Part shown: piece after piece, positions 6,490-64,000 of the stretch
How the letters are laid out: every line of letters starts with the position of its first letter
Numbering within the stretch: the stretch's first letter is position 1
Source of the DNA: Alphaproteobacteria bacterium
GTDB taxonomy: Bacteria > Pseudomonadota > Alphaproteobacteria > Micavibrionales > UBA2020
Reading direction: 5' to 3'
NCBI GenBank assembly: GCA_046314385.1
Contig: JBKBWZ010000006.1
Coordinates: 6,173-70,172, forward strand
Length of the DNA: 64,000 bases
The notes under the pieces: model-generated
The model's database searches: none
The model's input: the letters and a program-made list of their open reading frames with translations, nothing else
Told to the model about the DNA's origin: nothing
Position numbers and translations under genes: made by a program

Positions 6490-6517
6490 TTGTCAAAAAT
6501 TGCCGGTCTGGTAGACT
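6490..6517 (+). promoter_or_regulatory. sigma70-like promoter candidate (TTGTCA-16 nt-TAGACT)
   Basis: TTGTCA at 6490-6495 and TAGACT at 6512-6517, about 80 nt upstream of the 6596 start. Confidence 0.3.
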
Positions 6518-6595
6518 GCGACGGAATCAAAGCCTTGGTTTCAGACAACAACACGCAGCAGCGCAAAACAGCGGCGCCGCGTCAGGCAAGGATGC

Positions 6596-9769: not shown

Positions 9770-10285
9770 TCAACCGCCGAGGGTTTCGCGCGCAGCCCTG
9801 CAGGTATTGTGATTTGCAGCATCCTTTGCCGGGGCCGCATGGCAATTTTGTTTTTTTTGCGCCTGCCATGCCGCGAAGCTGACGACCGGATGTTCGTCAC
9901 CGAAACGCAGCGCCTGCATTTCAAGCCAGACACGCAGATAGGGATTGGCCGGCGACGGGTCGATTTTATAAATCGGATAAACGCCGTCCAGCTTCAGGTC
10001 TGCCAGAAAGGGCAATTGTTCTTCAAGGCAGGCTTTGACGGTTTCGATATTCGCCTGCGTTTGCGCGGCGGTGGCATCGCAGTCCATGACGAAAGCAACA
10101 AGGCGGTGCAGCGCCGCGGAGCCTTCCTGCGCGAGCATCAAACCGCTCGAGAGCGAGATAATATCATTGAGGTGAAAGTATTTAGAGACCAGACCGCTAT
10201 CGGCAGACATGTTGCCTTGCAGCATGTCTTGTTCGTTTTGCAGCGCGGCGGCGCCGTCGGCCGCTTCATAAGAATCATACGTCAT
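9770..10285 (-). CDS. small acidic hypothetical protein (about 171 aa)
   Basis: The ORF is open to 10363, but the first 26 codons have atypically AT-rich third positions, so the start was set at MTYDSYEA. My count is about 21 Asp/Glu against 12 Lys/Arg. No recognisable motif. Confidence 0.5.
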   Translation of the reverse strand: MTYDSYEAADGAAALQNEQDMLQGNMSADSGLVSKYFHLNDIISLSSGLMLAQEGSAALHRLVAFVMDCDATAAQTQANIETVKACLEEQLPFLADLKLDGVYPIYKIDPSPANPYLRVWLEMQALRFGDEHPVVSFAAWQAQKKQNCHAAPAKDAANHNTCRAARETLGG

Positions 10286-10541
10286 GGTACACACCCATCT
10301 ATCAGCCCTTGGGGCCTGTTGCGGCGGCAGAAATGTGACGCCGTTTAGATCATTTAGGTACATGATTTAAAACATCTTTTGGCGCAAAGGTCGCCTGAAA
10401 TATTTTCATCGTCGCAAAATACTGCGCCCGTGTTTTTATTATGTCAACATTTTTGTCGCACTGCGGAAAAAAGCAAAAAAGATCAATGCCCTGCCGCAAC
10501 GCTGCGGCGGGGACTATGCATCGTCATTGTCACCGAGTCGC

Positions 10542-14909: not shown

Positions 14910-14940
14910 TTGACTCTTTTTTGATGTTATGGAATATTAT
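14910..14940 (+). promoter_or_regulatory. sigma70-like promoter candidate (TTGACT then AATATTAT)
   Basis: TTGACT at 14910-14915. An AT-rich -10 candidate (AATATT or TATTAT) follows after a 17-19 nt spacer. Its position argues for the ATG at 14966 as the start of the downstream gene. Confidence 0.3.
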
Positions 14941-14965
14941 ACACGCTCAACCCGAAGGCCGAAAA

Positions 14966-16696: not shown

Positions 16697-16947
16697 ATAC
16701 GTCGCGGCGGAACAGCTGTAGCCGAAAAAATATTTTCAAATTCCGTAATGCGCCTTATGCCGCAGCTTTCGCGCGGCTGTTTACCTTATCTTGTACGAAA
16801 CCGCGCGCATGGCCGCGATATCTTGTGGCGGTTAACTCTATCTTAAGCCGTGCAGCCTAGTCTGGTGCAGCGATACCCCGCCCGCGCATTTGCGGCCTGC
16901 GATTTTTTAGGTTAGTGTTTTTATGGGGGTGTCGGATCGGGGTAGTC

Positions 16948-17508
16948 ATGCTGCGTCTGAACGACTTGTTTAATACCATTACCGGCAACGGAATCGACAA
17001 ACGGAACGAGCAGGGCGAAACCAAGCTCTACCGCGCCGCGCGCGAAGGCAATGTCAGCGCGGTCAAGAAACTGCTGCGCGCGGGGGCAGACCCCGATATC
17101 GCCGACAGCCACGGGCTGACGCCGCTGCATCAGGCCGCCTATTGGGGCGAAGGCGAGATTGTCAGCCTGCTGCTCAAAGCGGGCGCGGCGCCGAATATCG
17201 ATAACGGACACGGCTGGACACCTTTGCACAGCGCCGCATTGTCGGGCGGCATGAAAAGCCGCAGCGGGATTATCCGCGACCTTAAAAATGCCGGCGCCAA
17301 AGACGATATCAACGATAAACAGGGCTGGACCGCGCGTGATTACATGCAGCTTTGGGAAGAAAACGCACCGGCCGCGCAAAAATTGAAACATGGCACCGGA
17401 CATGGCGGCGCGCCTGTGCCGGATTCTGAAACATCGCGCCCGCCAGATACGCCGGTGCCGCCGCAAAACGGCGCAAAGCCCTGCGGCCCGCCCGCACCCC
17501 GTCACTGA
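16948..17508 (+). CDS. ankyrin-repeat protein (186 aa), candidate secreted effector
   Basis: ANK repeats: GETKLYRAAREGNVSAVKKLLRAGADPDIADSHGLTPLHQAAYWGEGEIVSLLLKAGAAPNIDNGHGWTPLHSAALSG. Pro-rich tail. The track start at 16915 is a GTG, so the first ATG was used. Confidence 0.85.
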   Translation: MLRLNDLFNTITGNGIDKRNEQGETKLYRAAREGNVSAVKKLLRAGADPDIADSHGLTPLHQAAYWGEGEIVSLLLKAGAAPNIDNGHGWTPLHSAALSGGMKSRSGIIRDLKNAGAKDDINDKQGWTARDYMQLWEENAPAAQKLKHGTGHGGAPVPDSETSRPPDTPVPPQNGAKPCGPPAPRH

Positions 17509-41457: not shown

Positions 41458-42297
41458 GTGAAACCCGTTCTGTTTCAAATGAAACCCGCCCTGTTTTTTG
41501 CCGCCGCACTGGGCATGGCCGTTTTTTGCAGCTATGCCGTGCCGCGCACCGCCGCCGCTTATGACGGGCTGATGTCCGGATCGAAAACCACAGATGGCTA
41601 TGACGGCCTGCTGGCCCCCAGCCAACCCGCCCCGCGCGGCAATACCCGCGGCACACAAGAACCCCCCGGCTATGAGGGCCTGATCCGCGGCGCCGTACCG
41701 CAAAGACCTGTTGAAAATCCGGGCGCGACCAGCCCGGTCTCGCCGGCACGTCCGGGAACGGTGGCAACGCCCCCGAGCGCGACGACATCGCCGGTTCTCA
41801 GGCCACAGCCGGTACAAACAGCACGCCCAGAAATACCGATGACACCGCGGCCAGGCCGGGCGCGTGTTGGGAATATTTCGAGCGCCCAGCAGCTGATGCT
41901 GCTTGCAAGACTGAACGGCGTCAATCTCGACTTTAACAGCGTAATTAACGATAGAGTAAAACCATCTCCCGCGCTGCTGGGACTACCCGACCCGAAGCAA
42001 CCACGTGTAAATGGTATGCTACCGATGGAGCTTTTAGCCAAAACACAAATTGATCGCATAATGACCAGTATCAATCATCCTGCACTGTCAAATGAACAGC
42101 GTCAGGTAAATGCCCGTAACGGGTACAACCAACTTCTGGGCTATGTTGATGGCATCATGACCCGCCGCATGGTTCCTGACGCAATGTATAAAAATGCCGG
42201 TCTGAGTGATACATTTATCGCCGAGGAACACGAGGCAAATGAACGCGCAATGGCACGCTTTGAAGAGGCGTTTAAAATTTTACGCCCGCTGCAATAA
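41458..42297 (+). CDS. secreted hypothetical protein with repeated Y[DE]GL motif
   Basis: GTG start with GGGAGAGAG upstream. Signal peptide MKPALFFAAALGMAVFCSYA. Mature N-terminus carries YDGLM, GYDGLL and GYEGLI. GC content falls in the 3' half. Confidence 0.6.
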   Translation: MKPVLFQMKPALFFAAALGMAVFCSYAVPRTAAAYDGLMSGSKTTDGYDGLLAPSQPAPRGNTRGTQEPPGYEGLIRGAVPQRPVENPGATSPVSPARPGTVATPPSATTSPVLRPQPVQTARPEIPMTPRPGRARVGNISSAQQLMLLARLNGVNLDFNSVINDRVKPSPALLGLPDPKQPRVNGMLPMELLAKTQIDRIMTSINHPALSNEQRQVNARNGYNQLLGYVDGIMTRRMVPDAMYKNAGLSDTFIAEEHEANERAMARFEEAFKILRPLQ

Positions 42298-42322
42298 GCT
42301 ATTTGAAAAAGAGGATCCTGAC

Positions 42323-42841
42323 ATGACGACGTACCAACCGCAAAGGACTGATAGCCGCGTTTCTCGCCTTTTCTTTTTTATTGTGGCATTGGCATGTTTT
42401 TTTGTCGTTTCTCCAGACAAGCCCTCTCTTGCACAAGGCTATGAGGGTCTTATACAAACGCAAAGTGGGTACAATCCCCCACGGCGCAGTAATCAAGACT
42501 CCGGCGGCGGCTATGAGGGGGTTGTGGGCTGGCAATCGCAGCAAGGCGCGACCAACCCTTATGGCGCTGCACCTGCAGGAGATATTTATCAATTTGTACG
42601 CAGCTCGGGTACAAGCGTTGATGAGCGCCGGGCCGCAGAGAGAGAAAAACGAGAGGCACAGCGCCTCGCGCGCCAGCAGCAAATCATGGACACCAATCGT
42701 GTTCGTGCCGAAGCGCTGCACGCCCAACTAGAAGCCCAAAACGAAGCACGGCAGCGCCAAAATCAAGCGCAGCATCGGGAGATTATGCAGCGGATGCAAC
42801 AGCAACAAGAACAGCAGCAGCAGCAGCAGCGACGTCGTTGA
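42323..42841 (+). CDS. membrane-anchored or secreted hypothetical protein with GYEG motifs and a Gln-rich coiled-coil tail
   Basis: AAAGAGGA lies 7 nt before the ATG. Hydrophobic N-terminus, then SLAQGYEGLI and GGGYEGVVGW. The C-terminus is QRMQQQQEQQQQQQRRR, encoded partly by (CAG)6 at 42812-42829. Confidence 0.6.
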   Translation: MTTYQPQRTDSRVSRLFFFIVALACFFVVSPDKPSLAQGYEGLIQTQSGYNPPRRSNQDSGGGYEGVVGWQSQQGATNPYGAAPAGDIYQFVRSSGTSVDERRAAEREKREAQRLARQQQIMDTNRVRAEALHAQLEAQNEARQRQNQAQHREIMQRMQQQQEQQQQQQRRR

Positions 42842-43233: not shown

Positions 43234-43842
43234 ATGAAAACAAAGGATAAAATCTGCTGTTCGGCCCTGCCCCCCGCCCTGGCGGGCGCGCTGGAGGAGG
43301 CTTTGGGCGCTGCCGCCGATATCACCGCCGCGCCGGAAGGGGCCGATCTGGCGCTTTATCCGGCAGACGGCGCCGCACCGCAGGGGTTATCGCCCGCTGT
43401 GCCGCGCCTGACGCTTGACCTGCGCAGGCCGCAGCGTCTTGGCGGCATTTTGCGCCGCGTTCGGCAAATGATTGAAAGCCCCGCCTTTTATCTGGATGAC
43501 ATCGTGCTTGGCGCAGCGGTTTTCCAGCCGCAGGAAAAAACCATTTTTGCCGCCGCTGATGCGGCTGCCGGCAGCGCCGGACTGACCGACAAAGAAGTGG
43601 ATATTCTGCTTTGCCTTGCACGGCAGGACGGCCGGACGCTGAAGCGTGATGCGCTGCTGCACCATGTCTGGCGCTATCAGCCGGGTGTCGATACCCATAC
43701 GCTGGAAACCCACGTCTATCGCCTGCGCCAGAAACTGGCTGCGCTCGGCGGACTTGAAAATCTGCTGCTCACCGACGATGACGGCGGTTATCGCCTGTCG
43801 GTATCGCCCGCCGCTGCCGCCGCGGCAGAAGAAGAGGCCTGA
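43234..43842 (+). CDS. OmpR/PhoB-type winged-helix transcriptional regulator with a degenerate N-terminal domain
   Basis: C-terminal Trans_reg_C-like LTDKEVDILLCLARQDGRTLKRDALLHHVWRYQPGVDTHTLETHVYRLRQKL. The N-terminal about 90 aa lack an obvious receiver DD..D..K pattern. Confidence 0.7.
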   Translation: MKTKDKICCSALPPALAGALEEALGAAADITAAPEGADLALYPADGAAPQGLSPAVPRLTLDLRRPQRLGGILRRVRQMIESPAFYLDDIVLGAAVFQPQEKTIFAAADAAAGSAGLTDKEVDILLCLARQDGRTLKRDALLHHVWRYQPGVDTHTLETHVYRLRQKLAALGGLENLLLTDDDGGYRLSVSPAAAAAAEEEA

Positions 43843-52812: not shown

Positions 52813-55800
52813 TTATTGACCGGCCGGTTTGTCTCCACCACCGGTTTCGGGTGCCGCGGCTTCGGGGGCTTTGGCTTCCGGCGGCTTTGGGTCGTTCACG
52901 GCGATGTCTTCCAGTTTGACCTTGGTGCTGCCGACCAGTTCTTCGACAATTTTCTCGATGACGTTGCCAAGCGACGCCCCTTCGACATCGCCTTTTTCAG
53001 ACAGGGCCGCGATGCGGCGGCGGATTTCGGATCGGGCGGAACCGCCGGGGAAGTTCACCCCGAGCAGCTTACGCGCCTGCGACGCACCGATACGCGAATA
53101 AAGCCTGTTGCGGATGGCCGCATCCTCGGCCGTGGTCGAGAAGGCCCAAAGTTCAATCGGACCCAGTGTGTTGATCAGATGCTGTTCGTAACGGCCATCT
53201 GTCGTACCCAGAACCAGCAGCGCGGGCGCACCGCCAGCTTTCGGGCCGGTCAGCTTGTTACGCATGACCCAGCGCGCGGTATCGGTCAGACCGAAGCGTT
53301 TTTGCGTGGCATCAACCGCAGAATCGGAAATGGCCGCACCCAGAACCCATACACCCGTCGCCAAATCGACCATGTCGTCGTCGAAGTCGTCCAGCATCTG
53401 GGAGGCAAGGATGATCTGAATCCCGCGTTTGCGTCCCTCGCGGACGTCACGGACAATCTGCGCACGCACAGATTTGGTTTTCGACGTACGGTGGAACTCG
53501 TCATAGCAAAGACGCTTGGGCGTTTCGGCCAGATCTTTGAGGCGGCCTTCATGATAGGCGCGGAATTTCGGCGGCATCTGCGCCAGTGCTTCTTCGTTGA
53601 TCCACCACGGTGTGACCAGCGCCTGACGCGCCAGCATGTACATGACGGCCGTCTGACGATCTGACGTCGCATCGCCCGAGGGGCAAACGTCGGCCAGATC
53701 GAGCGCGCAGACGCGCGTTTCCGCGAGCGAGAATTTCGTCACCGAAGACAAAATCGGAAATTCACGGACGCCGGAAGTGATCATACGCTCGAAGGCGTGG
53801 ATAACCCCCTCGGACGAAGAGCCGATTGATGTTTCTTCCAGCAGGTTTCTGATCTGCGGGCGGCGGGCGGCGGCAATCGCATCACCCAGCGTTGGCATGG
53901 CATAACGCTGCGCCATGGCGGCTTCGTAGGCGAGGCCTTTGTCGAAAAGCAGATCGACGATATCCCACCAATAGGCGCCGGGCTGGATTTTGATATCATG
54001 CGCGCGGATCGCATCATCAACCGTCTGGTCGATACGCGGCAGATAGGGGCGCGGTTCGGCGTTGGCGGTATTGTCATCGCGCCAGCGGTACATTTCATCG
54101 ACCACCATCCCGCAAAGCTGCGAGATACCGTCATAGGGGTCCGGCTGGCCGGGCGGCGTGCAAATCAACGTCAACAGTTCGATCAGGAAGCTGCGCTCGG
54201 ACACCTGAGGCATACGCATGCCCAGTTTGGTGTCAAAGGGATTGATCGCGTATTGCGTTGTCATCTGCAGGCGGTAAGACGTCACCTCGTGCCGGCGGTT
54301 TGGCGGCAGGGCGTCTTTGAGCAGCGACACAAGACCCGCCGAAGACGGGCCGATGTCGATGACCGCGATAAACGGCAGGTTGGCCATACCCGCAGTCAAA
54401 CAGGTGCCAAGGTTAAGCGTATTCATCAAAACAGATTTACCACCACCAGGCTGCGCGAAGACAAGGTCAAACCATGTCGTGGTAACGTTGGTACCGGTTT
54501 GATAAGGCCAGACGCGGCCATCGGGCGTACGGAACAAAATCGCGCCCTGTTCAAATGGGCTGGAGGCACGCTGCCACGGCATCAGCTTCATGACTTCGTA
54601 GAGCGGCGCAACCGCCGGCGGCGCGGTCGATGCGCAGTGAATACCCAGCGCGGAAGACATGACCTGATCCAGCGGGTCGCCGGAGATCATCGATACCTGT
54701 GCATAGCCCCAGGATTCTGCGGACTGCGTCAGCGTAGAGAGGCGGTCTTCCAGAAGTTCGATATCGTCTTTGGGCGCCCAGGTCGCAAAAGACAGACGGA
54801 ATTTCACCACCGGTTCGCTGCGGGCAATCACGCTGAGCGCTTCGAGCGCTTCTTTCACCATCTTGTTTTCGGCATTTGTAACCGCGAAGATGGATGAAAG
54901 GAACTGCTGCATCGCCATACCCTGAATGCCGCCGCCTTCGAGCAGGAAGGACATGCGGAAGGGAATGCGCGCTTCGGACATCCGCTCGAGGAAAGCGGGG
55001 AAAGGTATAGGATCGGTCGGGCCCAGCACCATATCGCAGCCGCCCCAGACATATTTGCCCATTTCGACCACATGGTCGTTGATGACACGGGCATTGCTCA
55101 TGGTCAGCTGCTGGCGCAGTGATGGCCAGAGAATATCGGACATATCGTTTTTCTTTTGCGGCGCGCGCGGCGGAATCTTGTCGCCGGGCAGAATGGCGCG
55201 CCACTTGCTATCAATACTCGTCTGCAAAAGATTGGCACGGATGGTCGCCAGCGCTTCATGCACTTCCATCGTTGCGGCCTGAATGCCCATTTCCTTGAGC
55301 GCCGTTACCGTTGCAATCGAAAAACTGTTGTGGCGTGTGCGGATACCGTCAATCGCGGCAAAAGGATATTGCGCGTCTTTCGCATTGACCCATTTTTTGC
55401 CGCGGGCACGCTCGGCTTCGCGGGAAAGGTCTGATTTGCTGAGGACTGAGGGGCGCGTCCACAAAACGAAGTAAATTTCTTCCCAGGCGACATAGTGGCT
55501 GAGGTTTTTGGCGCGCTCTTCAAAAATATCGTCGATCTCAAGGCCGGTGTTTTTTGCTGCCATGTAGTTCGGGCGCAAAAGTTTCTTGAGCTCGTTATAG
55601 CTGCGTTCCGGATCGCGGGTGAAGTAGACCTGCATGGCATGGCCGGGGCGGTCAAAGCGCGTGCCGATTTTAACAACGGAGTCAGACAGGATTTTTTTGT
55701 ATTCGGCATCGCCGATAATCTGGCGCGCGCCATCGACGCGCACAACCGTCAGCAAAGAGCCGTCTTCGGCCACCAGCGTCGTATCGTCATCGGCCGTTTC

Positions 55801-55875
55801 AAGGCGAATAAACGATTCAAGCGGCTGGCGCAAAAGCCGCACAAAGGGTTTCAAAAGAGCGTCGAACATACCCAT
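52813..55875 (-). CDS. icmB: type IVB secretion ATPase IcmB/DotO
   Basis: About 1020 aa. N-terminus IRLETADDDTTLVAEDGSLLTVVRVDG. Walker A FAQPGGGKSV. Walker B-like LCYDEFHR. Lies immediately downstream of an icmJ-like gene, as in Legionella. Start set at MGMFDALL. The ORF is open to 55947. Confidence 0.9.
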   Translation of the reverse strand: MGMFDALLKPFVRLLRQPLESFIRLETADDDTTLVAEDGSLLTVVRVDGARQIIGDAEYKKILSDSVVKIGTRFDRPGHAMQVYFTRDPERSYNELKKLLRPNYMAAKNTGLEIDDIFEERAKNLSHYVAWEEIYFVLWTRPSVLSKSDLSREAERARGKKWVNAKDAQYPFAAIDGIRTRHNSFSIATVTALKEMGIQAATMEVHEALATIRANLLQTSIDSKWRAILPGDKIPPRAPQKKNDMSDILWPSLRQQLTMSNARVINDHVVEMGKYVWGGCDMVLGPTDPIPFPAFLERMSEARIPFRMSFLLEGGGIQGMAMQQFLSSIFAVTNAENKMVKEALEALSVIARSEPVVKFRLSFATWAPKDDIELLEDRLSTLTQSAESWGYAQVSMISGDPLDQVMSSALGIHCASTAPPAVAPLYEVMKLMPWQRASSPFEQGAILFRTPDGRVWPYQTGTNVTTTWFDLVFAQPGGGKSVLMNTLNLGTCLTAGMANLPFIAVIDIGPSSAGLVSLLKDALPPNRRHEVTSYRLQMTTQYAINPFDTKLGMRMPQVSERSFLIELLTLICTPPGQPDPYDGISQLCGMVVDEMYRWRDDNTANAEPRPYLPRIDQTVDDAIRAHDIKIQPGAYWWDIVDLLFDKGLAYEAAMAQRYAMPTLGDAIAAARRPQIRNLLEETSIGSSSEGVIHAFERMITSGVREFPILSSVTKFSLAETRVCALDLADVCPSGDATSDRQTAVMYMLARQALVTPWWINEEALAQMPPKFRAYHEGRLKDLAETPKRLCYDEFHRTSKTKSVRAQIVRDVREGRKRGIQIILASQMLDDFDDDMVDLATGVWVLGAAISDSAVDATQKRFGLTDTARWVMRNKLTGPKAGGAPALLVLGTTDGRYEQHLINTLGPIELWAFSTTAEDAAIRNRLYSRIGASQARKLLGVNFPGGSARSEIRRRIAALSEKGDVEGASLGNVIEKIVEELVGSTKVKLEDIAVNDPKPPEAKAPEAAAPETGGGDKPAGQ

Positions 55876-56124
55876 TAGACAAGCATCCCTGATTTTGCCG
55901 CCATGATTTTTACCGGTAGACCCCGCCAATGGCGCAGCATTCAACAATATATCAGATAAGCCTTGTAAAGACAGGTCTTTTGTTCAAAAACCGGCACGCC
56001 CGGCGCGCGGCGGGTTATGTCCAGCGCAGCCTGTGCCGTAAGAGGCAACGCCCGTTTTAACGTAATTGATGCGCGTCAAAAACAGGGGCGGTGCCACGGA
56101 CGAGAGGGAGATTTAAAACGTAGA

Positions 56125-56844
56125 TTATTCGCTAACGGGGGGAGATTGTTTGTTATTCGTCCGGTTGCGCAGATCATAGAACAAATTGACCCAGCGCCGC
56201 GGCGGCACATCGCCGAAGGGGCCATCTTTGGAACGCCAATAGGCGAGGATCTGCGGGAACTGGTTAAACTCCAGATCGCCTTCTTTGATGATCCGGCGGT
56301 CGAGCGGCAGCATACGGAAGCCCTTGAGGCGTGAAAGGCGGTTTTTGTATTCCTTGGCCTCGAGGAAATCCTGCAAGACCGTCGCCAATATGCGCGGACT
56401 GTCTGTGCCGAGCCTGTTGAGCGCTTCTTCCTTGCGCGCCAGCAGCGCTTCGAGCGCATCGCGCGCAGCATCGGCCATCGGCCCCTGCGAGATACGCGCC
56501 ACATAGATGGCACGGCATACATGGTGCAGCGCGGCCTGTCCGATTTCAGGCAGCCAGATCACGGCGCCGGACTGCATACGCTCCACGCGCTCCAGATGAA
56601 AACACTGGTGGCAAAATGTACAGGCTGTCGCGTAGTCGTCTTCGCCGCCGGCCTGACCGGTTTTGCCGATATAATTTATTTCCTGATATTTGCGCGATTG
56701 AAAACCGCAATAGCGGCAGGTGTATTGGTCACGCTCCAGCACCTTTGTGCGTATATCCTCGGACGGCGTATGCACATCCTGAGAAAGAATACGCCCGGCA
56801 TCGGACAATCCGCTGATGCCGGGCGATATCCTTAAATAGGCCAT
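56125..56844 (-). CDS. icmJ: IcmJ/DotN-like zinc-binding T4BSS coupling-complex protein
   Basis: Cys clusters RDQYTCRYCGF and ACTFCHQCFH are of the kind known for DotN. Size and position between icmD and icmB match the Legionella order. Confidence 0.75.
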   Translation of the reverse strand: MAYLRISPGISGLSDAGRILSQDVHTPSEDIRTKVLERDQYTCRYCGFQSRKYQEINYIGKTGQAGGEDDYATACTFCHQCFHLERVERMQSGAVIWLPEIGQAALHHVCRAIYVARISQGPMADAARDALEALLARKEEALNRLGTDSPRILATVLQDFLEAKEYKNRLSRLKGFRMLPLDRRIIKEGDLEFNQFPQILAYWRSKDGPFGDVPPRRWVNLFYDLRNRTNNKQSPPVSE

Positions 56845-56874
56845 ATCAAAAATCCTTTGAAGTGGCCAATCTTC

Positions 56875-57279
56875 TTACGGTACGAACAGGGTGCTAGAGT
56901 TACCCAGTTTCAGACCGGCAACGTTTGCTTTCGCTTGGTCACCGTTCGAGATCGAACCCTGCATGATACGCATCATGAACGGAAGCGCTAGGAACATACC
57001 ACCGCAAGCAAGACGGATCAGTGCGTCTTTCATCGGGGCCTGAGCCGGGTTGTCAACGTGCTGCTTCAGTTTGAAAATACCAGCGAGGGCGAGACCAGCA
57101 CCAGCGATGTACGCGAGGGTAGAGATCAGGCCGACGGTACCGGAAACAGCAGTAACAACGTTCTTGGATGCGTTGCTAAGATCAAGTGCAGTAGCAGACA
57201 TAGCATCTGAGCTATCCGCCATGAGAGCGCCTACCGTAGCGGCAGCCGCGAGTTTGTGAGAGAGTTTTGACCGTTTCAT
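56875..57279 (-). CDS. icmD: IcmD/DotP-like small inner-membrane T4BSS protein
   Basis: 134 aa with a TM hairpin: GLISTLAYIAGAGLALAGIFKLKQHVDNPAQAPMKDALIRLACGGMFLALPFMMRIMQGSI. Assigned from synteny and size. Confidence 0.65.
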   Translation of the reverse strand: MKRSKLSHKLAAAATVGALMADSSDAMSATALDLSNASKNVVTAVSGTVGLISTLAYIAGAGLALAGIFKLKQHVDNPAQAPMKDALIRLACGGMFLALPFMMRIMQGSISNGDQAKANVAGLKLGNSSTLFVP

Positions 57280-57339
57280 TTGTAGTTCTCCTTTTACTTA
57301 CACACAGTTAGTTAGCGTAGCACGCTTTTATCGTGTCTA

Positions 57340-58275
57340 CTAGTTAAATGAGAGCCCTGTGACGTTCACCGTACGCATGATCACGTTAATGAACTCACCC
57401 AGGTTGATCGCCAAAGTGCCCCCGAACAGGAACGTCAGACCTTGTGCAACGGTGGCCCCTTGTTGGCCATCGGCAAAAGCTCTTAAAACGAACCATCCTC
57501 TGATAAAAGCGATATAGCCGACCAACATGACGAAGGCCATCACCGCTTCTATAACTGTTTGGACACGCAAGCGAGATACGTTGTCCGTAATTACCGTATT
57601 GGAGACCAGCGAGTTGGTCTTCAGCGTATTGCCCGTGCCGCCAAAAAGGCTGTCGGCAAAAGTCCCCATCGAATCCCCGAAGGAGAAAAGAGCGCCCGAT
57701 GCAACAAATGTCGTAATTGTTCCCACGCCACCCGGGCCGCGCGGCCCTTCCTCGACACGTTTGGTCAGGCGCGATATACCCACAAGCAAGAGCGCAATAG
57801 CCGAAAGATAGGCTATCGCCGTCAACAGAGCTTCCGCCGGACCGGCGATGTTGCTCATAAAATCGAAAACCATTTTATCAAGGCCGCCGCCTGAAAGCGC
57901 GGCTTTGGTCGTGCCCGTATTACCTAGCTTGTTCGAGCCGATCGCTTCACCGGCGAAAATCGAGCCTCGAACGATACGGATCATAAAAGGCAGAGACAAG
58001 AAACATCCGCCCGCAACCATGCGCTTGATGCCCTCCCACAAGGAGGTTTGTTGCGGGTTATCTACGTGCTGTTTGAATTTGAAAATACCTGTTATCGCAA
58101 GAAGTGCGCCTGTGATGTAGGCAATTGTCGAAAAAATGATGGTAATACCATCAGTGGCCCGTAATGTGTTTATAAGGACATCGCCCATTTTTTGGCCGGC
58201 AAAAGCATTATCTGCAGCAACAACTGTAAACAGCGAAGCGAATAACAGCGTTTTGCAGATATGGCGATACATCAT
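57340..58275 (-). CDS. icmC: IcmC/DotE-like inner-membrane T4BSS protein with an extra N-terminal IcmD-like module
   Basis: The N-terminal about 130 aa closely parallel IcmD (IFSTIAYITGALLAITGIFKFKQHVDNPQQTSLWEGIKRMVAGGCFLSLPFMIRIVRGSI). Two further TM hairpins follow. Start set at MMYRH with GAGGG upstream. The ORF is open to 58341. Confidence 0.6.
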   Translation of the reverse strand: MMYRHICKTLLFASLFTVVAADNAFAGQKMGDVLINTLRATDGITIIFSTIAYITGALLAITGIFKFKQHVDNPQQTSLWEGIKRMVAGGCFLSLPFMIRIVRGSIFAGEAIGSNKLGNTGTTKAALSGGGLDKMVFDFMSNIAGPAEALLTAIAYLSAIALLLVGISRLTKRVEEGPRGPGGVGTITTFVASGALFSFGDSMGTFADSLFGGTGNTLKTNSLVSNTVITDNVSRLRVQTVIEAVMAFVMLVGYIAFIRGWFVLRAFADGQQGATVAQGLTFLFGGTLAINLGEFINVIMRTVNVTGLSFN

Positions 58276-58515
58276 GCGATACACCCTCGGTGTGTAAAAG
58301 AGGTCATACTTTATTACATCACCTTTTGCAAAACTGTGCAAACAAGCTGTTGATCAAGCATAACCGTATACCAGTTAAGTTGCTGTTTATAATAGATAAA
58401 AATACGTACTTGGCGAGCGTACAAACAGGGAGAATTTGGCTAAATTTTACCTGTTTTTTAGGATTTTGGAGCATCCAGAGAAGAAAAAGGCCTGAGAATG
58501 ATTCTCAAAAGTTAG

Positions 58516-59712
58516 TTATTGGTTAATCGAGCCGCGCGTACCGTTAACAAACCAGCGGCCCTGCGCATCGGTTGCAATCGCCGTGACTTTACCGATACCG
58601 GCGAGCGTATCACCGACACTGACCGTGCGCATCTCGCTAGACCCTTTTTCAGAGACCCAGGCCATACCAGGCTTTGCCGAGCGCAAAACCCAATCGACTT
58701 TACGGGCCGGTGCCGCAGGCTGTGCTGCTACCGGCTTTTTCTCGGCCGTAGGGGCTGCTGCTGTCCCGGTTTGCTTGGTCGCTACGGCGGGGGTGGACTT
58801 GGCGGTCGCCGCTGTTTTTGCGGCAGCCTTGGCATCGGCCTGTGCTGTCTTCAGATCGGCTTGCGCTTGTGCCAGCGCTGCGGATTTCTTGGCAAGCTCG
58901 TCATTCGCCTGCTTGAGCGCCTTTTCGGCGTCGGCAAGCGATTTTTCTGTTACTGCCAGTTTCTTTTCGAGCGCTTCGGCGTGCGCCTTCGCGCCGGTAT
59001 CTTCGGTGGGGGCAGTCGTCGGTGCCGCTGTTGCCGCAGCCGTTACCGGCGCTGCTGCAAAAGGATCAACGATATCATTTTGTACCGGCGCAGATGTCGT
59101 GGCCTCGGGAGCATTCACGGCATCGGTGACGTCCTGAGCACCCATCATCGCAAAAGGATCAATGATGTTACCGCTGTCGGCCTGTGTATCGGCCTGTGCG
59201 CCATCATCAAATGTTTCAACGGGCATTTTCTTGAAAGCTTCTGCCGCCGCCGCCGGCGTTTCTTCCATTCCCCAGGGCGCATTCACCGTTGGGGCATCTT
59301 CGGACGGCGCGGCGTCGGGAATACCAAAAGGCAGATTTCCGGCATCTGCCGTGATGCTGTCAGCAGGGACAGCCGGCTGTGGGGGCAAATCACCCATGGG
59401 CAAATCGGCCGAGGTTGTCATTGTATCGCGCGCATCTTCCGCCGTTGGCTGCGGCGACACCGGTACCTGTGCCGTTTGCGTCAGGCCCGGAACATCAAAA
59501 GGCAATTGCACGCCCAGAAATTTAACCGCAGCAAAACTGCCGCCGCCAAGAACCGCGAGCAGCAAAACCGTCACTATCAGCCCGCCGCCGGATTTTTTCT
59601 GTTTCGGCGTGGTCTCTAGCGGGGTTTCGATTTCCTCATCGAGACTGACGTCGTCAAAAGACTCTTCTTCTGTATCTTCAACGTCAAGCTCGAATTCGTC
59701 TTTGTTGCTCAT
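58516..59712 (-). CDS. icmG: IcmG/DotF-like T4BSS protein
   Basis: Acidic N-terminus, a single TM helix (GGGLIVTVLLLAVLGGGSFAAVKFL), an Ala/Lys coiled coil, and a C-terminal beta domain WVLRSAKPGMAWVSEKGSSEMRTVSVGDTLAGIGKVTAI. Synteny between icmE and icmC. Confidence 0.65.
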   Translation of the reverse strand: MSNKDEFELDVEDTEEESFDDVSLDEEIETPLETTPKQKKSGGGLIVTVLLLAVLGGGSFAAVKFLGVQLPFDVPGLTQTAQVPVSPQPTAEDARDTMTTSADLPMGDLPPQPAVPADSITADAGNLPFGIPDAAPSEDAPTVNAPWGMEETPAAAAEAFKKMPVETFDDGAQADTQADSGNIIDPFAMMGAQDVTDAVNAPEATTSAPVQNDIVDPFAAAPVTAAATAAPTTAPTEDTGAKAHAEALEKKLAVTEKSLADAEKALKQANDELAKKSAALAQAQADLKTAQADAKAAAKTAATAKSTPAVATKQTGTAAAPTAEKKPVAAQPAAPARKVDWVLRSAKPGMAWVSEKGSSEMRTVSVGDTLAGIGKVTAIATDAQGRWFVNGTRGSINQ

Positions 59713-59736
59713 CTGTGTTTTGCCTTTTTGTCTGGA

Positions 59737-61128
59737 TTATTGGCCCGCCCGAACCTTCATTCCGACCTCGTCTGTGGTCACAGTCGAAAGCATCAAAATA
59801 CCGAAAGTTGTTCCCTTGGCCAGTCGAATAGTAATCGGACGCTTTGCCTGTTCGGTCATGGCACTTGCGATCTCTCCGGCCGCCTCTTCTGCACCCGCCA
59901 TCAATTCTTTTTTGGTGTCGAGCTCGTCTTCCTGCTGGATCACAGCGCCGCCGGGACCGGTGGTCGTCGAGGTGACAGCCTTGGCAGCAGCTGAGGTATA
60001 GCCTTCAAGGAACTTTGCTGCCGCTGGTAAAATCACACGGCGAAAATAGTGACGATCAATATCCGTCACATGGCCGGCCAACGTGGTTTTTTCGTCGAGC
60101 GCGATACCGTTGATTGTATAACCCACGGCATCCTTGACGATAACCGAGAACTCAAGGACAAGGTATTCTTCCTGAACACTATATTTTCCAAGAGCCCGCC
60201 CGCCCGCGAAAGGTCCAGAAAGGACATGCGCGAGAACCGGCCCGGGAATGTCCGAGTTCAATTCATTGAGCAGTTGCGCATAGGCAATAGATCCTGCGGG
60301 CGTAATGATACGGGTTTTTGGCTCGTTGCTCGCTGCAACAACCCCCCCGGCTGCACCGACACCGGCTGCGCCCGGCATACCCATCCCCATGCCCATCGAG
60401 CTGGAACTGCTTGCGGTCAAGCTTGCTCTTTCAGCCTTTTCTCGTTCGGCCTTCATGATTGCGTATGCGGAGTCTTCTTTTGTAATCCCTGCGACCTTGG
60501 AGGGCTGCGGCGCCTGTGATGAAATGATCACACGCATCTGTTCGGCCAATGCTTTGGCTGCGTCCGGATCCATTTTCATCGCAGCTTGCTGCGGACGGAC
60601 AGGAGTTGGCATCGGCACAATTTCAGGCTCTTTTTCATTCGGAGCATCTTGATCGGGTGCACGGCCGAGCTCAAGCCGCGCGCGCTCTTGCGCAGCCTGG
60701 CGCCACTGCGCCAGAGGGTCGTCCATGTCTTGTTGCGGCTGTGCCGGAATAGTAATGTTATCCGAACTGGCCGAATCGATTGCGATAGGAATAAAGCTTC
60801 CACCGCCCTGCGCGCTCTGTTGCAGCTGCTGTTCGTTTTGTTGTTTGAGACGCTCCTGCATATCCACGTCGATATTGTCGACGGTTCCGGGGGTGCTCTT
60901 GACCTGCTCGGTTCCGCTAATCGACGTCACTGCACGCCCCTGAGGCCCCTCTTCTGCCGGCGCAAAAATCATATAGGCGCCAAAAAGCACCGCAGCCCCA
61001 AGCACGACTGCGCCAATTTTCATGAGAGGATTGTTGTCCCATGCTTCTTTGAAAGAAGTTTTTGGCCCGGCGTCCTGCTCGAAATCGTCTTCCTGATCGA
61101 TATCGATATCGTTTTCGTTATTGGTCAT
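59737..61128 (-). CDS. icmE: IcmE/DotG-like (VirB10/TrbI-domain) T4BSS core protein, short form
   Basis: Acidic N-terminus plus a TM helix (IGAVVLGAAVLFGAYMIFAP). C-terminal VirB10/TrbI-like domain (ITPAGSIAYAQLLNELNSDIPGPVLAHVLSGPFAGGRALGKY..TIRLAKGTTFGILML). 463 aa with no long repeat region. ATGA-coupled to icmK. Confidence 0.8.
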   Translation of the reverse strand: MTNNENDIDIDQEDDFEQDAGPKTSFKEAWDNNPLMKIGAVVLGAAVLFGAYMIFAPAEEGPQGRAVTSISGTEQVKSTPGTVDNIDVDMQERLKQQNEQQLQQSAQGGGSFIPIAIDSASSDNITIPAQPQQDMDDPLAQWRQAAQERARLELGRAPDQDAPNEKEPEIVPMPTPVRPQQAAMKMDPDAAKALAEQMRVIISSQAPQPSKVAGITKEDSAYAIMKAEREKAERASLTASSSSSMGMGMGMPGAAGVGAAGGVVAASNEPKTRIITPAGSIAYAQLLNELNSDIPGPVLAHVLSGPFAGGRALGKYSVQEEYLVLEFSVIVKDAVGYTINGIALDEKTTLAGHVTDIDRHYFRRVILPAAAKFLEGYTSAAAKAVTSTTTGPGGAVIQQEDELDTKKELMAGAEEAAGEIASAMTEQAKRPITIRLAKGTTFGILMLSTVTTDEVGMKVRAGQ

Positions 61129-62246
61129 GGCGTGGTTACCTCGTCAGCGGCGATTTGGGCGCGTACCATCCTGCCTTCGTCGGAAAGCAGGATCACGGGT
61201 GCGTGGTTAAGCGTATAGACATTCATGCCGTCGGCCGAAGAAACGCTGGAATCCCAACCGGGAGAAAGCAGCGTCAGCGGCGTGCGCAGATAAAGCTGGT
61301 CGGAAACCTTCCATGCTGTCGTGCGGCCATCGGCACCAATGACATTGACGCGCACCGCTTCTTTGGGCGGCGTGCCATCCAGAAAGCCTGTCATGTTATC
61401 ATCACGGCCTGCAACCGCCTTAAGACCGCCGTATTGAATCAGCGGCGTTTTGGCCAGCGGGCCGGGGCGCGGTATACGCGCATCAAAACGGTAATGCACT
61501 TCGTCAAGACCGGTTTCCAGCCGCACCGTAACGGGCGTAATAAGATCAACCAGTCGGATTGAGATGTTTCCAACTCCATGCGCCGTAACCGGAGTGATGC
61601 GAATGATATGCCCACCGGATTCCGGCGTAGTAATTTCATATTTACCAGCCCAGCCGATATCCTGAATAGGCCAAGGCGCCCCGGTAGAATCAAGAATGGT
61701 AAACGTCGTCACATGTCCAGGAGACATCTTAATGAGTGCAGGCGCCTCGCTTGGGTCCAGAGACAGGGTCTGAACGACCTGACGGGGTTCAGGCACGGTA
61801 ATCGGCGTTTCCGCAGCTTCGCGTTTAACCTTGAAAACTTCCAGCGTCCTGCGGATCTGAGCCGCCTCCAGCGGCAAGAGCTGCTTAAGCGCCATTTCAA
61901 AGGCCTGCTCATCCATTTTACGTTTTTGCTCTTCGGCCTCCTGCTCCATCAAAGCTTGCAAGTCAGCCGCGCTCGATGTGCCGCCCATCATCGGGCCAAC
62001 AGGCAAGCCGCCGGCCGGACCCAGAGGATTTGACATCATGGGATCGCCGCGCATTGCAGCCATGGGATCGATAATTTGTTCTTCTGGGCTGGGGCCTCTG
62101 GCGGGTTTATCGGCGGGCACCGCAGCGCCGCGCTCAGCTCTCTGGCGGAAAGCTTCAAACTCGCTTAGATCTGCCTGTGCAAACGCAAAAGACGGGGCCA
62201 TGCCAATTAGCGCCACACAAACGATACTTGAAACCAAAGGCCTCAT
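61125..62246 (-). CDS. icmK: IcmK/DotH-like T4BSS outer-membrane core protein
   Basis: Signal peptide MRPLVSSIVCVALIGMAPSFAFA. Beta-rich C-terminal body (HVTTFTILDSTGAPWPIQDIGWAGKYEITTPESGGHIIRITP). AAGGAGA Shine-Dalgarno before 62246. Synteny between icmL and icmE. Confidence 0.72.
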   Translation of the reverse strand: MRPLVSSIVCVALIGMAPSFAFAQADLSEFEAFRQRAERGAAVPADKPARGPSPEEQIIDPMAAMRGDPMMSNPLGPAGGLPVGPMMGGTSSAADLQALMEQEAEEQKRKMDEQAFEMALKQLLPLEAAQIRRTLEVFKVKREAAETPITVPEPRQVVQTLSLDPSEAPALIKMSPGHVTTFTILDSTGAPWPIQDIGWAGKYEITTPESGGHIIRITPVTAHGVGNISIRLVDLITPVTVRLETGLDEVHYRFDARIPRPGPLAKTPLIQYGGLKAVAGRDDNMTGFLDGTPPKEAVRVNVIGADGRTTAWKVSDQLYLRTPLTLLSPGWDSSVSSADGMNVYTLNHAPVILLSDEGRMVRAQIAADEVTTP

Positions 62247-62379
62247 CGCGGTTATCTCCTTAAAAATCTGTTCTCCGAAGCACAGCATCTGACTCTGTGC
62301 TCTACAGAGAAGCAACATATTTATACCCTACGCCCCGCCTGCCGCACAATCCTTATTACGCGAACAACGGAGCCTGACA

Positions 62380-63009
62380 TCAATCGACGCGCCAGGTAAA
62401 GATACCAAGCCCGGCTGCATTGACTGTTGTTGGCAGTCTTACGACAAACATTGTCGCCGTGGCACGTATGGCTCTTTCTATACCAGGGGCCCGAACAGTC
62501 ATCGTCAGTGGCACCTCAATCATCCAGCCCATCTGTCCTTCGTTCATACCTTGTCCGACTATAGATGGCGGCGCGGCAGGAATTGCCGTGATGACCTGCT
62601 GGAATTTTTGCACATTTTCGAACAGGCTTGATTTGCCAAAAGACTGACGGAAGCTGGTTAGCCCCTCGGGCGAGAAATATTGTTGCGATATTGCAAAACG
62701 TTCGTTGACGTCGTTGAAACCAAAGGTCAGAATTTCGGTCGCTGCCTGTGCCGCCCAATCCAAAAGAAGTGCGTTACTAATGTAAGGCTCACTCAACGCA
62801 ACAAGGGGCATAGCCTGACCGCCGCTCATAATCGCAAAATATCGGTCTTGCGGTAATACGTAGCTGACACGATAAAAAACAACGACGAGCAGACCAAGGA
62901 TTGCAAGCACAAGCGCAATCGCAATGCGGAACATGTTCTTGTAGCCATCTCGATAGCTAAGTAAGGTTTCGAGATCTGCCGTCGCATTTCTTTCTTCCGC
63001 CGTCGTCAC
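62380..63009 (-). CDS. icmL: IcmL/DotI-like T4BSS inner-membrane protein, paralog 2
   Basis: GTG start. N-terminal TM helix, then a DotI-type periplasmic domain (DRYFAIMSGGQAMPL..LLDWAAQAATEILTFGFNDVNERFAISQQYFSPEGLTSF). Aligns along its length with the upstream paralog. Confidence 0.72.
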   Translation of the reverse strand: MTTAEERNATADLETLLSYRDGYKNMFRIAIALVLAILGLLVVVFYRVSYVLPQDRYFAIMSGGQAMPLVALSEPYISNALLLDWAAQAATEILTFGFNDVNERFAISQQYFSPEGLTSFRQSFGKSSLFENVQKFQQVITAIPAAPPSIVGQGMNEGQMGWMIEVPLTMTVRAPGIERAIRATATMFVVRLPTTVNAAGLGIFTWRVD

Positions 63010-63071
63010 CGCTATGCTCTGCCTTTGTGAATATTATGCGATCGACTTTCCTCAGCGGGAAAGTCTGGCCG

Positions 63072-63971
63072 CTATTGTCCGCTTTCCGCAAGCCACTGCT
63101 GGATACCAACCCCGTTGGGATTCTCGAGCGAGGAGACCCGCTCGACCACAAGAGTCAATTTCAGGTTTTCTGTACGTGCCTGTTCGCGCGCACGATATTC
63201 TACCGACATCGGCATTTCCAGCACCCAGCGATATTTACCACCAGCGACACCGTGCTGGCGAATAACCGGGGCGCTGCGCGGGGAGGCCACAACAACCTGA
63301 CGCTGCGCCGTGACGGATTCGATAATCCGTGCCTTTTCCATGGCGGTCGAAAATGTTTCCCAGCCCGTTTTGGTGAAATGGCGCGACGCCTGCTGCAAGC
63401 GGCGCTGGTAGTCGTGGAAGCCGAAGGTCATGACCTCGGTTGCCGCCTGCGCGACCCAGGACACGAGCGCGGAGTCGGTCAGGAAACGCTCGTTCAGCGG
63501 AGAGAGCTGCATGATACGGCCATCTGCCGTGGTCGCAAAATAGCGGTCATAGGCGACCGAGTTATTGATATGCACGATCAGCGTCAGGATCAGCCCGACG
63601 ATGATGACGCCTTCAAGGATCACGATTTTGATCAGATTGCGAAAGCCGTCGCGGTAAAATTCGTTGCGCGTCACAACGCTGACGAGCGGGCCGCCCGGCA
63701 TCGGTGCGGGTTTTGTGATCGGATTTTCTGCGACGGAACCTTTTTTAGGCGCCGCCGGTTTTTCCACGGCGGCCGCCGCCGCTGTAGCAGGGGCTGCGGG
63801 CTTGCCGCCCAGAACCTTGCTCAGCATCGACATCGGATTGCTGGCCGCAGGCGCGGGCGCATCTGTGGCTGCCGGATCGATTGCCGGATTGTCGATGTCG
63901 GTTTCGTTCGTGTCGCGTCCCGCGTCGGCCATACTATATGTATCCCCTGTATTGTCCCCTATAACCCGCAT
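63072..63971 (-). CDS. icmL: IcmL/DotI-like T4BSS inner-membrane protein, paralog 1 (Ala/Pro-rich N-terminal extension)
   Basis: FYRDGFRNLIKIVILEGVIIVGLILTLIV (TM), then DRYFATTADGRIMQLSPL..LVSWVAQAATEVMTFGFHDYQRRLQQASRHFTKTGWETF. The frame stays open to the window edge. The start could be 63971, 63932 or beyond. Confidence 0.72.
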   Translation of the reverse strand: MRVIGDNTGDTYSMADAGRDTNETDIDNPAIDPAATDAPAPAASNPMSMLSKVLGGKPAAPATAAAAAVEKPAAPKKGSVAENPITKPAPMPGGPLVSVVTRNEFYRDGFRNLIKIVILEGVIIVGLILTLIVHINNSVAYDRYFATTADGRIMQLSPLNERFLTDSALVSWVAQAATEVMTFGFHDYQRRLQQASRHFTKTGWETFSTAMEKARIIESVTAQRQVVVASPRSAPVIRQHGVAGGKYRWVLEMPMSVEYRAREQARTENLKLTLVVERVSSLENPNGVGIQQWLAESGQ

Positions 63972-64000
63972 GCCGCCGCGAAACGGCGCAAAAGCGGGTA

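Follow-up and report, generated by a model that had tools for sequence, protein, structure and literature searches.

The 64-kb stretch of DNA analyzed here (positions 6,173 to 70,172 of contig JBKBWZ010000006.1, assembly GCA_046314385.1; hereafter, the window) raises the question of what is built by nine adjoining minus-strand open reading frames (ORFs) at 52813-63971: a Dot/Icm-type (type IVB) secretion system that delivers proteins into other cells, or a different apparatus, such as one for conjugation. Our sequence comparisons support the assignment of these genes to a Dot/Icm-type block in an alphaproteobacterial chromosome and not to an IncI-type conjugation module. We further consider it likely that the host, an uncultured Micavibrio-like alphaproteobacterium, has a chromosomally encoded type IVB secretion system (T4BSS) for the translocation of effectors and that the block contributes part of it.

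Gene content and identity of the block

The ORF list contains all nine genes intact, in the order icmL1, icmL2, icmK/dotH, icmE/dotG, icmG/dotF, icmC, icmD, icmJ/dotN, and icmB/dotO. Seven of them are backed by profile or solved-structure matches, and the remaining two, icmC and icmD, by position and membrane architecture. The individual genes, with protein lengths in amino acids (aa), are the following:

63072-63971, minus strand: icmL1, 299 aa, DotI/IcmL (PF11393, E 2e-52; NF038072, 170.9 bits)
62380-63009, minus strand: icmL2, 209 aa, shorter DotI/IcmL paralogue (PF11393, E 2e-35; NF038072, E 5e-35)
61125-62318, minus strand: icmK/dotH, outer-membrane core-complex protein with signal peptide (PF12293, E 2e-68)
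59737-61128, minus strand: icmE/dotG, short form, 463 aa (PF03743, E 2e-8; NF033900 DotG, E 7e-32)
58516-59712, minus strand: icmG/dotF (NF038218 IcmG/DotF, E 1e-6; TraP, E 2e-4; both under cut-off)
57340-58275, minus strand: gene at the icmC/dotE position, 311 aa from the conserved ATG at 58275 (DUF6750, E 8e-7)
56875-57279, minus strand: gene at the icmD/dotP position, 134 aa (weak DUF6750 and TrbC/VirB2 matches, E ~3e-3)
56125-56844, minus strand: icmJ/dotN, cytoplasmic coupling-complex subunit with zinc-binding Cys clusters (NF038221, E 1e-27; 96.9 bits, model cut-off 100)
52813-55875, minus strand: icmB/dotO, VirB4-family ATPase, ~1020 aa from the ATG at 55875 (TraU homology, motifs)

The two DotI/IcmL proteins are ~33% identical to each other. 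IcmL1, encoded by the first gene of the block at the position held in Legionella by icmM/dotJ, has an Ala/Pro-rich cytoplasmic N-terminal extension, a single transmembrane (TM) helix (residues 116-134), and a periplasmic DotI domain, and IcmL2 consists of a single TM helix (residues 27-45) followed by its periplasmic domain. The icmE start overlaps the icmK stop (ATGA at 61125-61128), and the encoded protein joins an N-terminal TM helix to a VirB10/TrbI-like C-terminal domain. IcmG/DotF is bitopic, with a TM helix, a coiled coil, and a strongly conserved C-terminal domain of 60 aa, which is 88-93% identical among relatives, compared with ~45% for the remainder of the protein. The maximal icmC ORF reaches 58341; the product made from the conserved ATG comprises a signal peptide and a DUF6750 hairpin, followed by a polytopic C-terminal region. 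IcmD corresponds to the N-terminal module of IcmC, with signal peptide and hydrophobic hairpin, of which it is a paralogue; the motif GIFK(F/L)KQHVDNP occurs in both. Modules of the IcmD type weakly match TrbC/VirB2 and also a pilin-like family of mycoplasma integrative and conjugative elements (ICEs), and up to five copies of the IcmC/IcmD-type module are present in deeper relatives (L012, 13801-16562; L018, 3433-5534); the question arises of whether the module is pilin-like.

Comparison with solved Legionella pneumophila proteins and with Dot/Icm and IncI models revealed that every discriminating pair (DotI/TraM, DotG/TraO, and DotB/TraJ) goes toward Dot/Icm. IcmL1 matches L. pneumophila DotI (3wz4) with E 4.5e-27 (98 bits) and TraM of plasmid R64 with 4e-7 (33 bits). 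IcmE reaches 110 bits on the DotG model, compared with E 3e-15 (56 bits) on the TraO model, and aligns with residues 824-1047 of solved L. pneumophila DotG (E 6e-13). In addition, IcmK matches solved L. pneumophila IcmK (6x62) with E 3e-43 and shows 29% identity to R64 TraN, and IcmJ matches L. pneumophila DotN (5x1h/6sz9) with E 3e-19, the CxxC and CxxCxxC clusters being aligned. The smaller proteins gave fainter signals. A single IcmG sequence found no match in the PDB, and the IcmG family profile aligned with R64 TraP in hhalign at a probability of 88.6% (E 2.6e-6). IcmC matches the TraQ model NF033883 with E 2e-4, under its cut-off, its hhalign comparison with R64 TraQ is not significant (probability 2%), and the match of the IcmD family to R64 TraR is weak (probability 9%).

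The last gene required a different line of evidence, as its product finds no match in Pfam or the PDB. Its maximal ORF (52813-55947; 1044 aa) is assigned to IcmB because of its homology to IncI1 TraU (27% identity over 90% of the length, E 6e-98), the naming of its homologue clusters, and its motifs, namely, the Walker A sequence VFAQPGGGKS and the N-terminal ETADDDT...EDGSLL. Among the matches listed, more than 120 clusters at the 90% identity level show at least 66% identity to it, lie on contigs of up to 2.4 Mb, and carry the name IcmB from NCBI and JGI. Altogether, 710 IcmB cluster representatives were found at E<1e-30; among the 150 representatives listed, the IcmB relatives are unnamed and 33-48% identical, and the ten nearest are anonymous metagenome singletons.

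Given these E-values and the colinearity with the annotated traM-traU order of R64, the identity of the block is far beyond chance. The first-pass annotation of this DNA, made without database searches, had arrived at these nine assignments, in this order, on the strength of the IcmB motifs, the VirB10-like C terminus of IcmE, the DotN-type Cys clusters of IcmJ, the DotI-type periplasmic domains, the signal-peptide and TM architectures, and the ATGA coupling of icmK and icmE, and each of these observations is borne out by the comparisons above.

Extent of the block and its conservation in relatives

The relatives, retrieved through the similarity of their IcmK and through a look-up of IcmB, are labelled Micavibrio sp., Alphaproteobacteria, or "Bdellovibrionales". 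The identical nine-gene order was found in six of them (L001, L003, L004, L005, L007, and L019), on contigs of 28 kb to 2.2 Mb. Upstream of icmL1, each of the six has a divergent gene for a DUF6782 metallopeptidase and, after it, ankyrin genes; the nine-gene block is therefore complete within the window. The expectation that the locus goes on past position 64000, which the first-pass annotation had raised together with that of finding icmM, icmN, icmO, icmP, icmT, and dotA-D nearby, is ruled out by this synteny; the relatives carry icmO, icmP, icmT, and dotB-D at separate chromosomal loci (see below).

The closest relatives of the window are Micavibrio-like metagenome-assembled genomes (MAGs). 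"Micavibrio sp." is a loose label on such MAGs, and the "Bdellovibrionales" and "Pseudobdellovibrionaceae" labels on relatives stem from the placement of Micavibrio under Bdellovibrionota in the NCBI taxonomy. The Mic60 gene of the window and the title of the Micavibrio genome paper, which speaks of alphaproteobacterial affinity, both point to Alphaproteobacteria. Indeed, a Mitofilin/Mic60 domain, which fits an alphaproteobacterium, lies within the hemC-hemD-hemY cluster, where the earlier annotation had placed it.

IcmB of the window is 97.5% identical to that of L001 and 60-62% identical to those of deeper relatives. In L025, the only divergent relative compared, TsaD, GpsA, and HemC are just 43-53% identical to their counterparts in the window; the two sets of figures come from different genomes, the icm block of L025 not having been fetched. 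Read with that proviso, these values suggest that the block has been under strong constraint and has probably resided in the clade for a long time.

Deeper relatives differ in several details. They have one icmL only, and a divergent operon of 4-6 genes (174-714 aa) without a Pfam family adjoins their icm block (L008, 1353-8657, minus strand; L009; L012, 2686-8816, minus strand; L015, 3517-8607, minus strand). A C-terminal motif, ...(L/V)(M/L)LE(T)(M/L)L..., recurs in several of the operon proteins of L008 and L012. When ten genes of this divergent region in L008 and L012 were scanned against Pfam, nine had no match, and the tenth (812 aa), which is the farthest from the L012 block, encodes the flagellar protein FlgK.

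Components encoded at other loci in relatives

The relatives carry further components of the machine at other sites. L015 has, on a single contig and 6 kb from the icm block, a gene for a lytic transglycosylase (SLT) followed by dotD-dotC-dotB-icmT, and the same cluster is found in L024. In L025, dotD-dotC-dotB lie beside hisA-gpsA-tsaD-hemC-hemD-mic60-hemY, with a gene for an 806-aa DotL on the other side; of these housekeeping genes, the six from gpsA to hemY are found in the window too. L026 contains dotM, a gene of 181 aa, and dotL. The assignments rest on Dot/Icm models: DotB of the relatives scores 406 bits on the DotB model and 242 bits on the TraJ model, DotD is matched with E 1e-31 and IcmT with E 3e-26, DotM_C matches are present, and a relative's DotM matches L. 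pneumophila DotM with E 6e-23. DotB is conserved at a level of at least 73% identity across the 120 clusters listed. We infer that the system is spread over at least three chromosomal loci amid housekeeping genes, which for the window's own genome would hold by extension from these relatives.

Most of the DotL/IcmO homologues listed are on contigs shorter than 10 kb, and 22 are labelled partial by NCBI. The dotL gene of L026 (in the region 10001-12137) stands at a contig end, and the C-terminal ~180 aa of L025 DotL (19421-21161) are a low-complexity sequence of Pro, Ala, and Gln. The dotL gene may thus break metagenome assemblies and make the automated detection of complete systems in MAGs unreliable.

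Intergenic regions and transcription units

Two intergenic regions of the block stand out:

58276-58515, minus strand: icmG-icmC intergenic region, AT-rich (37.5% GC), from a seven-genome alignment
55930-56008, minus strand: icmJ-icmB intergenic control region, with a terminator-like hairpin and a 60-nt conserved block

Counted from the conserved starts at 58275 and 55875, the two gaps measure 240 bp and 249 bp, in agreement with the sizes given in the first-pass annotation, which had taken them as signs of several transcription units. Upstream of icmB, the terminator-like hairpin (56008-55994) is followed by the 60-nt block (55990-55930) conserved in relatives. The icmG-icmC gap contains several blocks conserved in seven genomes, among them a perfect palindrome, TGAGAATGATTCTCA, at 58493-58507, directly past the icmG stop. 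This element aligns in all seven genomes and is perfect in the window, L001, and L004, the other four having substitutions. Its form suggests an operator to be bound by a dimeric regulator, not a terminator, and the gap is likely a promoter/operator region for icmC-icmD-icmJ. Tested as a regulon motif, the palindrome (TGAGAATNATTCTCA) proved to be unique in the window. Footprinting also revealed a conserved TTGCGG-N17-TAGTAT upstream of icmL1 in the relatives, at a position that falls just outside the window.

Because of these conserved intergenic blocks and the one terminator-like site, the genes appear to form at least three transcription units, icmL1-icmG, icmC-icmJ, and icmB. A scan for sigma-70 consensus sites found no more of them than in shuffled sequence. 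OmpR-family regulators control dot/icm in Legionella. The window has a gene (43234-43842, plus strand) for a protein with an OmpR/PhoB-type winged-helix domain (E 1e-18) and without a recognizable receiver domain; the gene is 9 kb away from icmB and has no conserved counterpart beside the block in relatives.

Candidate cargo and its C-terminal tail

The window is rich in genes for ankyrin-repeat (Ank) proteins and for DUF6782 metallopeptidases, and we consider their products to be candidate cargo:

299-937, 937-1407, 9094-9711, 10542-12143, 14921-16696, 16915-17508, and 47648-48703: seven Ank proteins
6596-8077, 19732-21342, and 49336-50550: three DUF6782 proteins with an HExxHAxQ motif invariant in alignments

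Four of the candidates lie near icmB:

47648-48703, minus strand: Ank protein (Pfam)
49336-50550, plus strand: DUF6782 HExxH metallopeptidase (Pfam)
50743-51723 and 51720-52730, plus strand: two paralogous Ank-like proteins (hhalign)

In the Ank-like paralogues, hhalign detects one Ank-like repeat or more (probability 92.6%, E 4.5e-7). None of the four candidates near icmB has an obvious Sec signal, and all have basic Pro-rich tails. All close relatives likewise have Ank and DUF6782 genes on the flanks of the block, L001 with four Ank genes in a row. A density of seven Ank and two Ank-like proteins in 64 kb is typical of bacteria living with eukaryotic cells. In DUF6782 the invariant motif reads in full HExxHAxQ...EADA; its profile finds in the PDB only a weak HExxH match to IrrE, and no mention of the family was found in the literature searched. 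An AlphaFold model based on the three window sequences was too poor for a fold search, with a predicted local distance difference test (pLDDT) score of 46.

Inspection of the C termini revealed a tail, with Lys or Arg next to Pro, common to families that are otherwise unrelated: the Ank, Ank-like, and DUF6782 proteins and two paralogous hypothetical proteins (1875-2720 and 2874-3875). Its other bearers in the window include the products of 299-937, 9094-9711, 47648-48703, 49336-50550, and 51720-52730. Examples are LRPRGPK, FKPRTAGPR, IKPRAPKPPKPPQP, and GKPRLSQPAR, and the pattern can be written as ...KPRxxP[KR]. Such a basic Pro-rich tail is present in 11 of the 14 candidates, compared with 1 of the 27 other window proteins (Fisher p ~1e-6, an optimistic value, as the criterion was chosen after inspection and many of the proteins are orthologues or paralogues of one another). 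The trend recurs in relatives, including L001 and L019, many of the proteins there being orthologues. The sole tailed protein outside the candidates (26535-27182, minus strand; tail ...FFPPPKP) scores 24 bits on the DSPc model, whose cut-off is 33.5; this dual-specificity-phosphatase-like protein could likewise be an effector of eukaryote-like type.

Legionella DotM uses R196, R197, R217, R314, and R315 to bind acidic, Glu-rich tails, and the authors of that study predict co-evolved interfaces in species with other tails (PMC5802825). In DotM of L026, a genome whose distance to the window's lineage was not measured, these five positions read E, K, A, R, and E. Since the tail is enriched in the candidates and the Glu-binding Arg positions are changed in L026, we hypothesize that the basic tail serves as the translocation signal of this clade, unlike the acidic E-block of Legionella.

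Proposed function and target

According to the function we propose, the nine genes would constitute one of several chromosomal Dot/Icm loci. The block would supply two DotI-family inner-membrane proteins, three envelope-spanning proteins of the core complex (DotH, a short DotG, and DotF), and, in the places of DotE and DotP, two small membrane proteins of the DUF6750 type. It would also provide DotN, a zinc-binding subunit of the coupling complex, and DotO, a VirB4-type ATPase predicted to dock beneath the channel. The other loci would, judging from the relatives, contribute DotC, DotD, DotB, IcmT, and the DotL-DotM coupling pair. Once assembled, the machine would be powered by ATP and would drive unfolded proteins out of the bacterial cytoplasm and into a cell with which the bacterium is in contact. 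Its presumed cargo comprises the Ank, Ank-like, and DUF6782 proteins encoded around the locus, which it may recognize through their basic Pro-rich tails in place of the acidic E-block of Legionella. The target is most likely a eukaryote, probably a protist, the richness in ankyrin proteins being a lead and not a test.

Several points weigh against this proposal, in addition to the post hoc tail criterion and the origin of the DotM comparison stated above. DotL, DotM, DotA, DotB, DotC, DotD, and IcmT are all missing from the window, and a full component set in the window's own genome would have to be extrapolated from its relatives. DotA/TraY gave no tblastn match with R64 TraY in the window or the fetched loci, a search of low sensitivity on limited sequence. 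The names icmC and icmD are given by position and topology. Legionella DotO could not be placed in an IcmB tree (no DotO is in the PDB); the tree was dropped, and model-versus-model scores and the solved Legionella proteins of other subunits were used instead. As to the eukaryotic target, an ankyrin protein of Bdellovibrio acts in self-protection, as an immunity factor (PMC4686830), and cultured Micavibrio aeruginosavorus preys on bacteria and is reported to be without any type IV secretion system (PMC3189940).

The last two observations also bear on the explanation that comes closest to competing, which is that the system is antibacterial: an attached predatory cell would inject toxins, for example, DUF6782 proteins, into Gram-negative prey, and the Ank proteins would confer immunity. 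The labelling of the closest relatives as Micavibrio, a genus of epibiotic predators of bacteria (PMC3189940), favors it, as does the Bdellovibrio self-protection factor, and a bacteria-killing T4BSS is known from Pseudomonas putida IsoF (PMC9519443). Moreover, relatives have a conserved pair, divergent from icmL1, of a DUF6782 gene and then a ~500-aa Ank gene, in some cases overlapping, which resembles effector-immunity pairs. In L019, the two genes (511-1461 and 1-514) overlap by 4 bp, and in L001, they lie at 6868-7980 and 5399-6937; such a pair could represent two effectors or a toxin and its immunity protein. However, predation in the genus evidently needs no such system, given that the one sequenced, cultured Micavibrio predator examined is reported to lack one, and the Micavibrio label on MAGs is, as said, a loose one. 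The Ank proteins are numerous (seven in 64 kb), large (reaching 591 aa), mostly unpaired with a toxin-like gene, and without signal peptides. They bear the same C-terminal tails as the putative toxins, and a role as cargo fits this better than one in immunity. We therefore regard the antibacterial explanation as unlikely, and prefer delivery into a eukaryote.

More speculatively, the clade filed under "Micavibrio", which is large and widespread in the environment, might consist of Legionella-like parasites or symbionts of protists, or else of epibiotic predators that use a T4BSS, in which the Dot/Icm system has diverged independently and addresses its effectors (ankyrin arrays and DUF6782 metallopeptidases) by basic, Pro-rich tails. 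DotM would have been remodelled in this scenario because the arginines that read the acidic Legionella signal are lost, and the tail may take the form hydrophobic-x-hydrophobic-[KR]-P-[KR]...P-[KR]. We offer this broader picture only tentatively.

Secretion or conjugation

We next consider whether the block could be the mating-pair-formation module (MPF-I) of an IncI-like ICE or of an old integrated plasmid, with DNA as the transferred substrate. The traM-traU genes of IncI1 are colinear with the block, and IncI homologues are detectable for IcmB, IcmK, IcmL, and IcmG; furthermore, 3220 of the 3782 plasmid records matching IcmB are conjugative, and the GC content of the block (55.6%) is slightly lower than that of the rest of the window (58.3%). 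The Dot/Icm models nevertheless outscore the IncI models on the components compared. A scan of ~60 window ORFs found no relaxase, integrase, or replication protein, a tblastn search with NikB found no match in the window or the relatives' loci, and neither the 64 kb nor the ±10-kb flanks of the relatives' loci contain a relaxase, integrase, replication, or tRNA gene or an oriT-type backbone or accessory gene. In addition, NikA/NikB relaxosome genes, thin-pilus pil genes, a shufflon, and a plasmid backbone are absent from the window, and tRNA and Rfam scans of it returned nothing. The neighbors of the block in the window include acs, gpsA, tsaD, hemC, hemD-mic60, hemY, and an aminotransferase gene, the system as a whole is divided over loci set among such housekeeping genes, and the block is conserved with synteny over a deep clade and is found there on contigs as long as 0.35-2.2 Mb. 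Because of the better Dot/Icm scores, the lack of a relaxase, the chromosomal neighbors, and the conservation within the clade, conjugation is very improbable. The first-pass annotation had named IncI-type homologues next to a relaxase and plasmid backbone as the finding that would overturn its Dot/Icm reading; the profiles match, and the Dot/Icm reading stands.

That the block is a decayed, non-functional remnant, as might be thought from the presence in the window of only 9 of roughly 25 Dot/Icm genes, is hardly credible, given the nine intact ORFs, the conservation of IcmB (97.5% identity to L001 and at least 60% over the clade) and of DotB across its listed clusters, the conserved intergenic control blocks, and the intact other loci in relatives.

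Neighboring genes and a divergent Rhizobium replicon

Within the housekeeping cluster, hemD and the Mitofilin/Mic60 gene form one uninterrupted ORF of 826 aa (31890-34370, plus strand), and in L025, HemD and Mitofilin/Mic60 are encoded by two adjoining genes (240 and 623 aa). The window ORF could encode a true fusion, or translation could begin at an internal start. Elsewhere in the window, two adjoining genes (41458-42297 and 42206-42841, plus strand) encode proteins with a signal peptide or TM helix that have Pro- or Gln-rich regions, contain repeated G-Y-(D/E)-G-L motifs, and gave no family match.

Outside the Micavibrio-like clade, pRlX5 of Rhizobium leguminosarum, an unannotated megaplasmid of 1.3 Mb, encodes an IcmB-like protein with 42% identity to that of the window (L021, 20076-23084) and, ~20 kb from it, a DotL-like protein with about 40% identity (L023, 25456-28230). 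BLAST found no further recognizable T4BSS component on pRlX5, and it was set aside as a reference system for that reason; it may carry a very divergent alphaproteobacterial type IVB-like system.

Comparison with known systems

Reviews treat effector-translocating T4BSSs as a hallmark of (deep-branching) intracellular Gammaproteobacteria (PMC11338181, PMC8896642), and the first-pass annotation had similarly pointed out that the well-studied Dot/Icm systems are gammaproteobacterial. As a claim to novelty, this point is weakened by public annotation from PGAP and JGI, which already names genes of the clade IcmB, IcmO, and DotB, and by one published sentence. Needham et al. (2022, PMC9418006), using MacSyFinder, reported pT4SSi (protein-secreting type IVB) systems from "Candidatus Comchoanobacterales" and from seven Micavibrionales MAGs, all marine, and they connect pT4SSi with host-associated genomes rich in ankyrins and with the lack of a relaxase. 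The Micavibrionales systems, which are covered there in a single sentence without gene-level description, effector candidates, or signal analysis, probably represent the system described here, in the bacterial order to which the window also belongs. With the Icm/Dot annotation of public MAGs and the occurrence in print already known, the practical novelty of the locus is limited.

The open interest lies in the target organism and in the possible new secretion signal. A Dot/Icm machine appears to be conserved over a large alphaproteobacterial clade, with ATPases more conserved than three housekeeping proteins (judged from one divergent relative). If eukaryotes are targeted, these bacteria would be overlooked associates of protists in water, sludge, and marine samples, and they would offer an independent lineage in which to study type IVB substrate choice; if bacteria are targeted, "leeching" predation would gain a mechanism. 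From the basic C-terminal tail that the candidates share follows a rule for predicting effectors that can be put directly to the test.

Among systems from other bacteria, the T4BSS of P. putida IsoF is likewise found outside intracellular pathogens and delivers protein effectors, and we liken the two by description and not by sequence. It is relevant to the window inasmuch as relatives of the host are bacterial predators; in the window, no effector-immunity pair was identified. The traM-traU region of IncI1 R64-type plasmids resembles the block in its colinearity, in the homology of TraU to IcmB (27%), of TraN to IcmK (29%), of TraM to IcmL, and of TraP to IcmG, and in its short TraO, which is comparable to the short DotG found here. 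It differs in that the block described here is chromosomal, has housekeeping and Ank neighbors, and scores lower on IncI models.

The closest known system is the Dot/Icm system of Legionella and Coxiella, which has its gene order and protein families in common with the block. The likeness extends to direct sequence similarity with solved L. pneumophila DotH, the DotG C-terminal domain, DotI, and DotN, and DotB, DotC, DotD, IcmT, DotL, and DotM of the relatives score best on Dot/Icm-specific models. The Legionella Dot/Icm genes are also chromosomal and split over several loci, and ankyrin-repeat proteins are a classic class of Dot/Icm effectors. The differences from Legionella begin with the host, here a Micavibrio-like alphaproteobacterium and not a gammaproteobacterium. 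Two full-length DotI paralogues are found in place of DotI and a truncated DotJ, DotG, at 463 aa, is without the repeat region found in its Legionella counterpart of 1048 aa, and IcmC has an N-terminal DUF6750 module paralogous to IcmD. Likewise, icmO, icmP, and icmT do not adjoin the block. Finally, the DotM arginines that bind Glu-rich tails in Legionella are not conserved in the relative L026, and the tails of the candidate effectors are basic, whereas those of Legionella are acidic.

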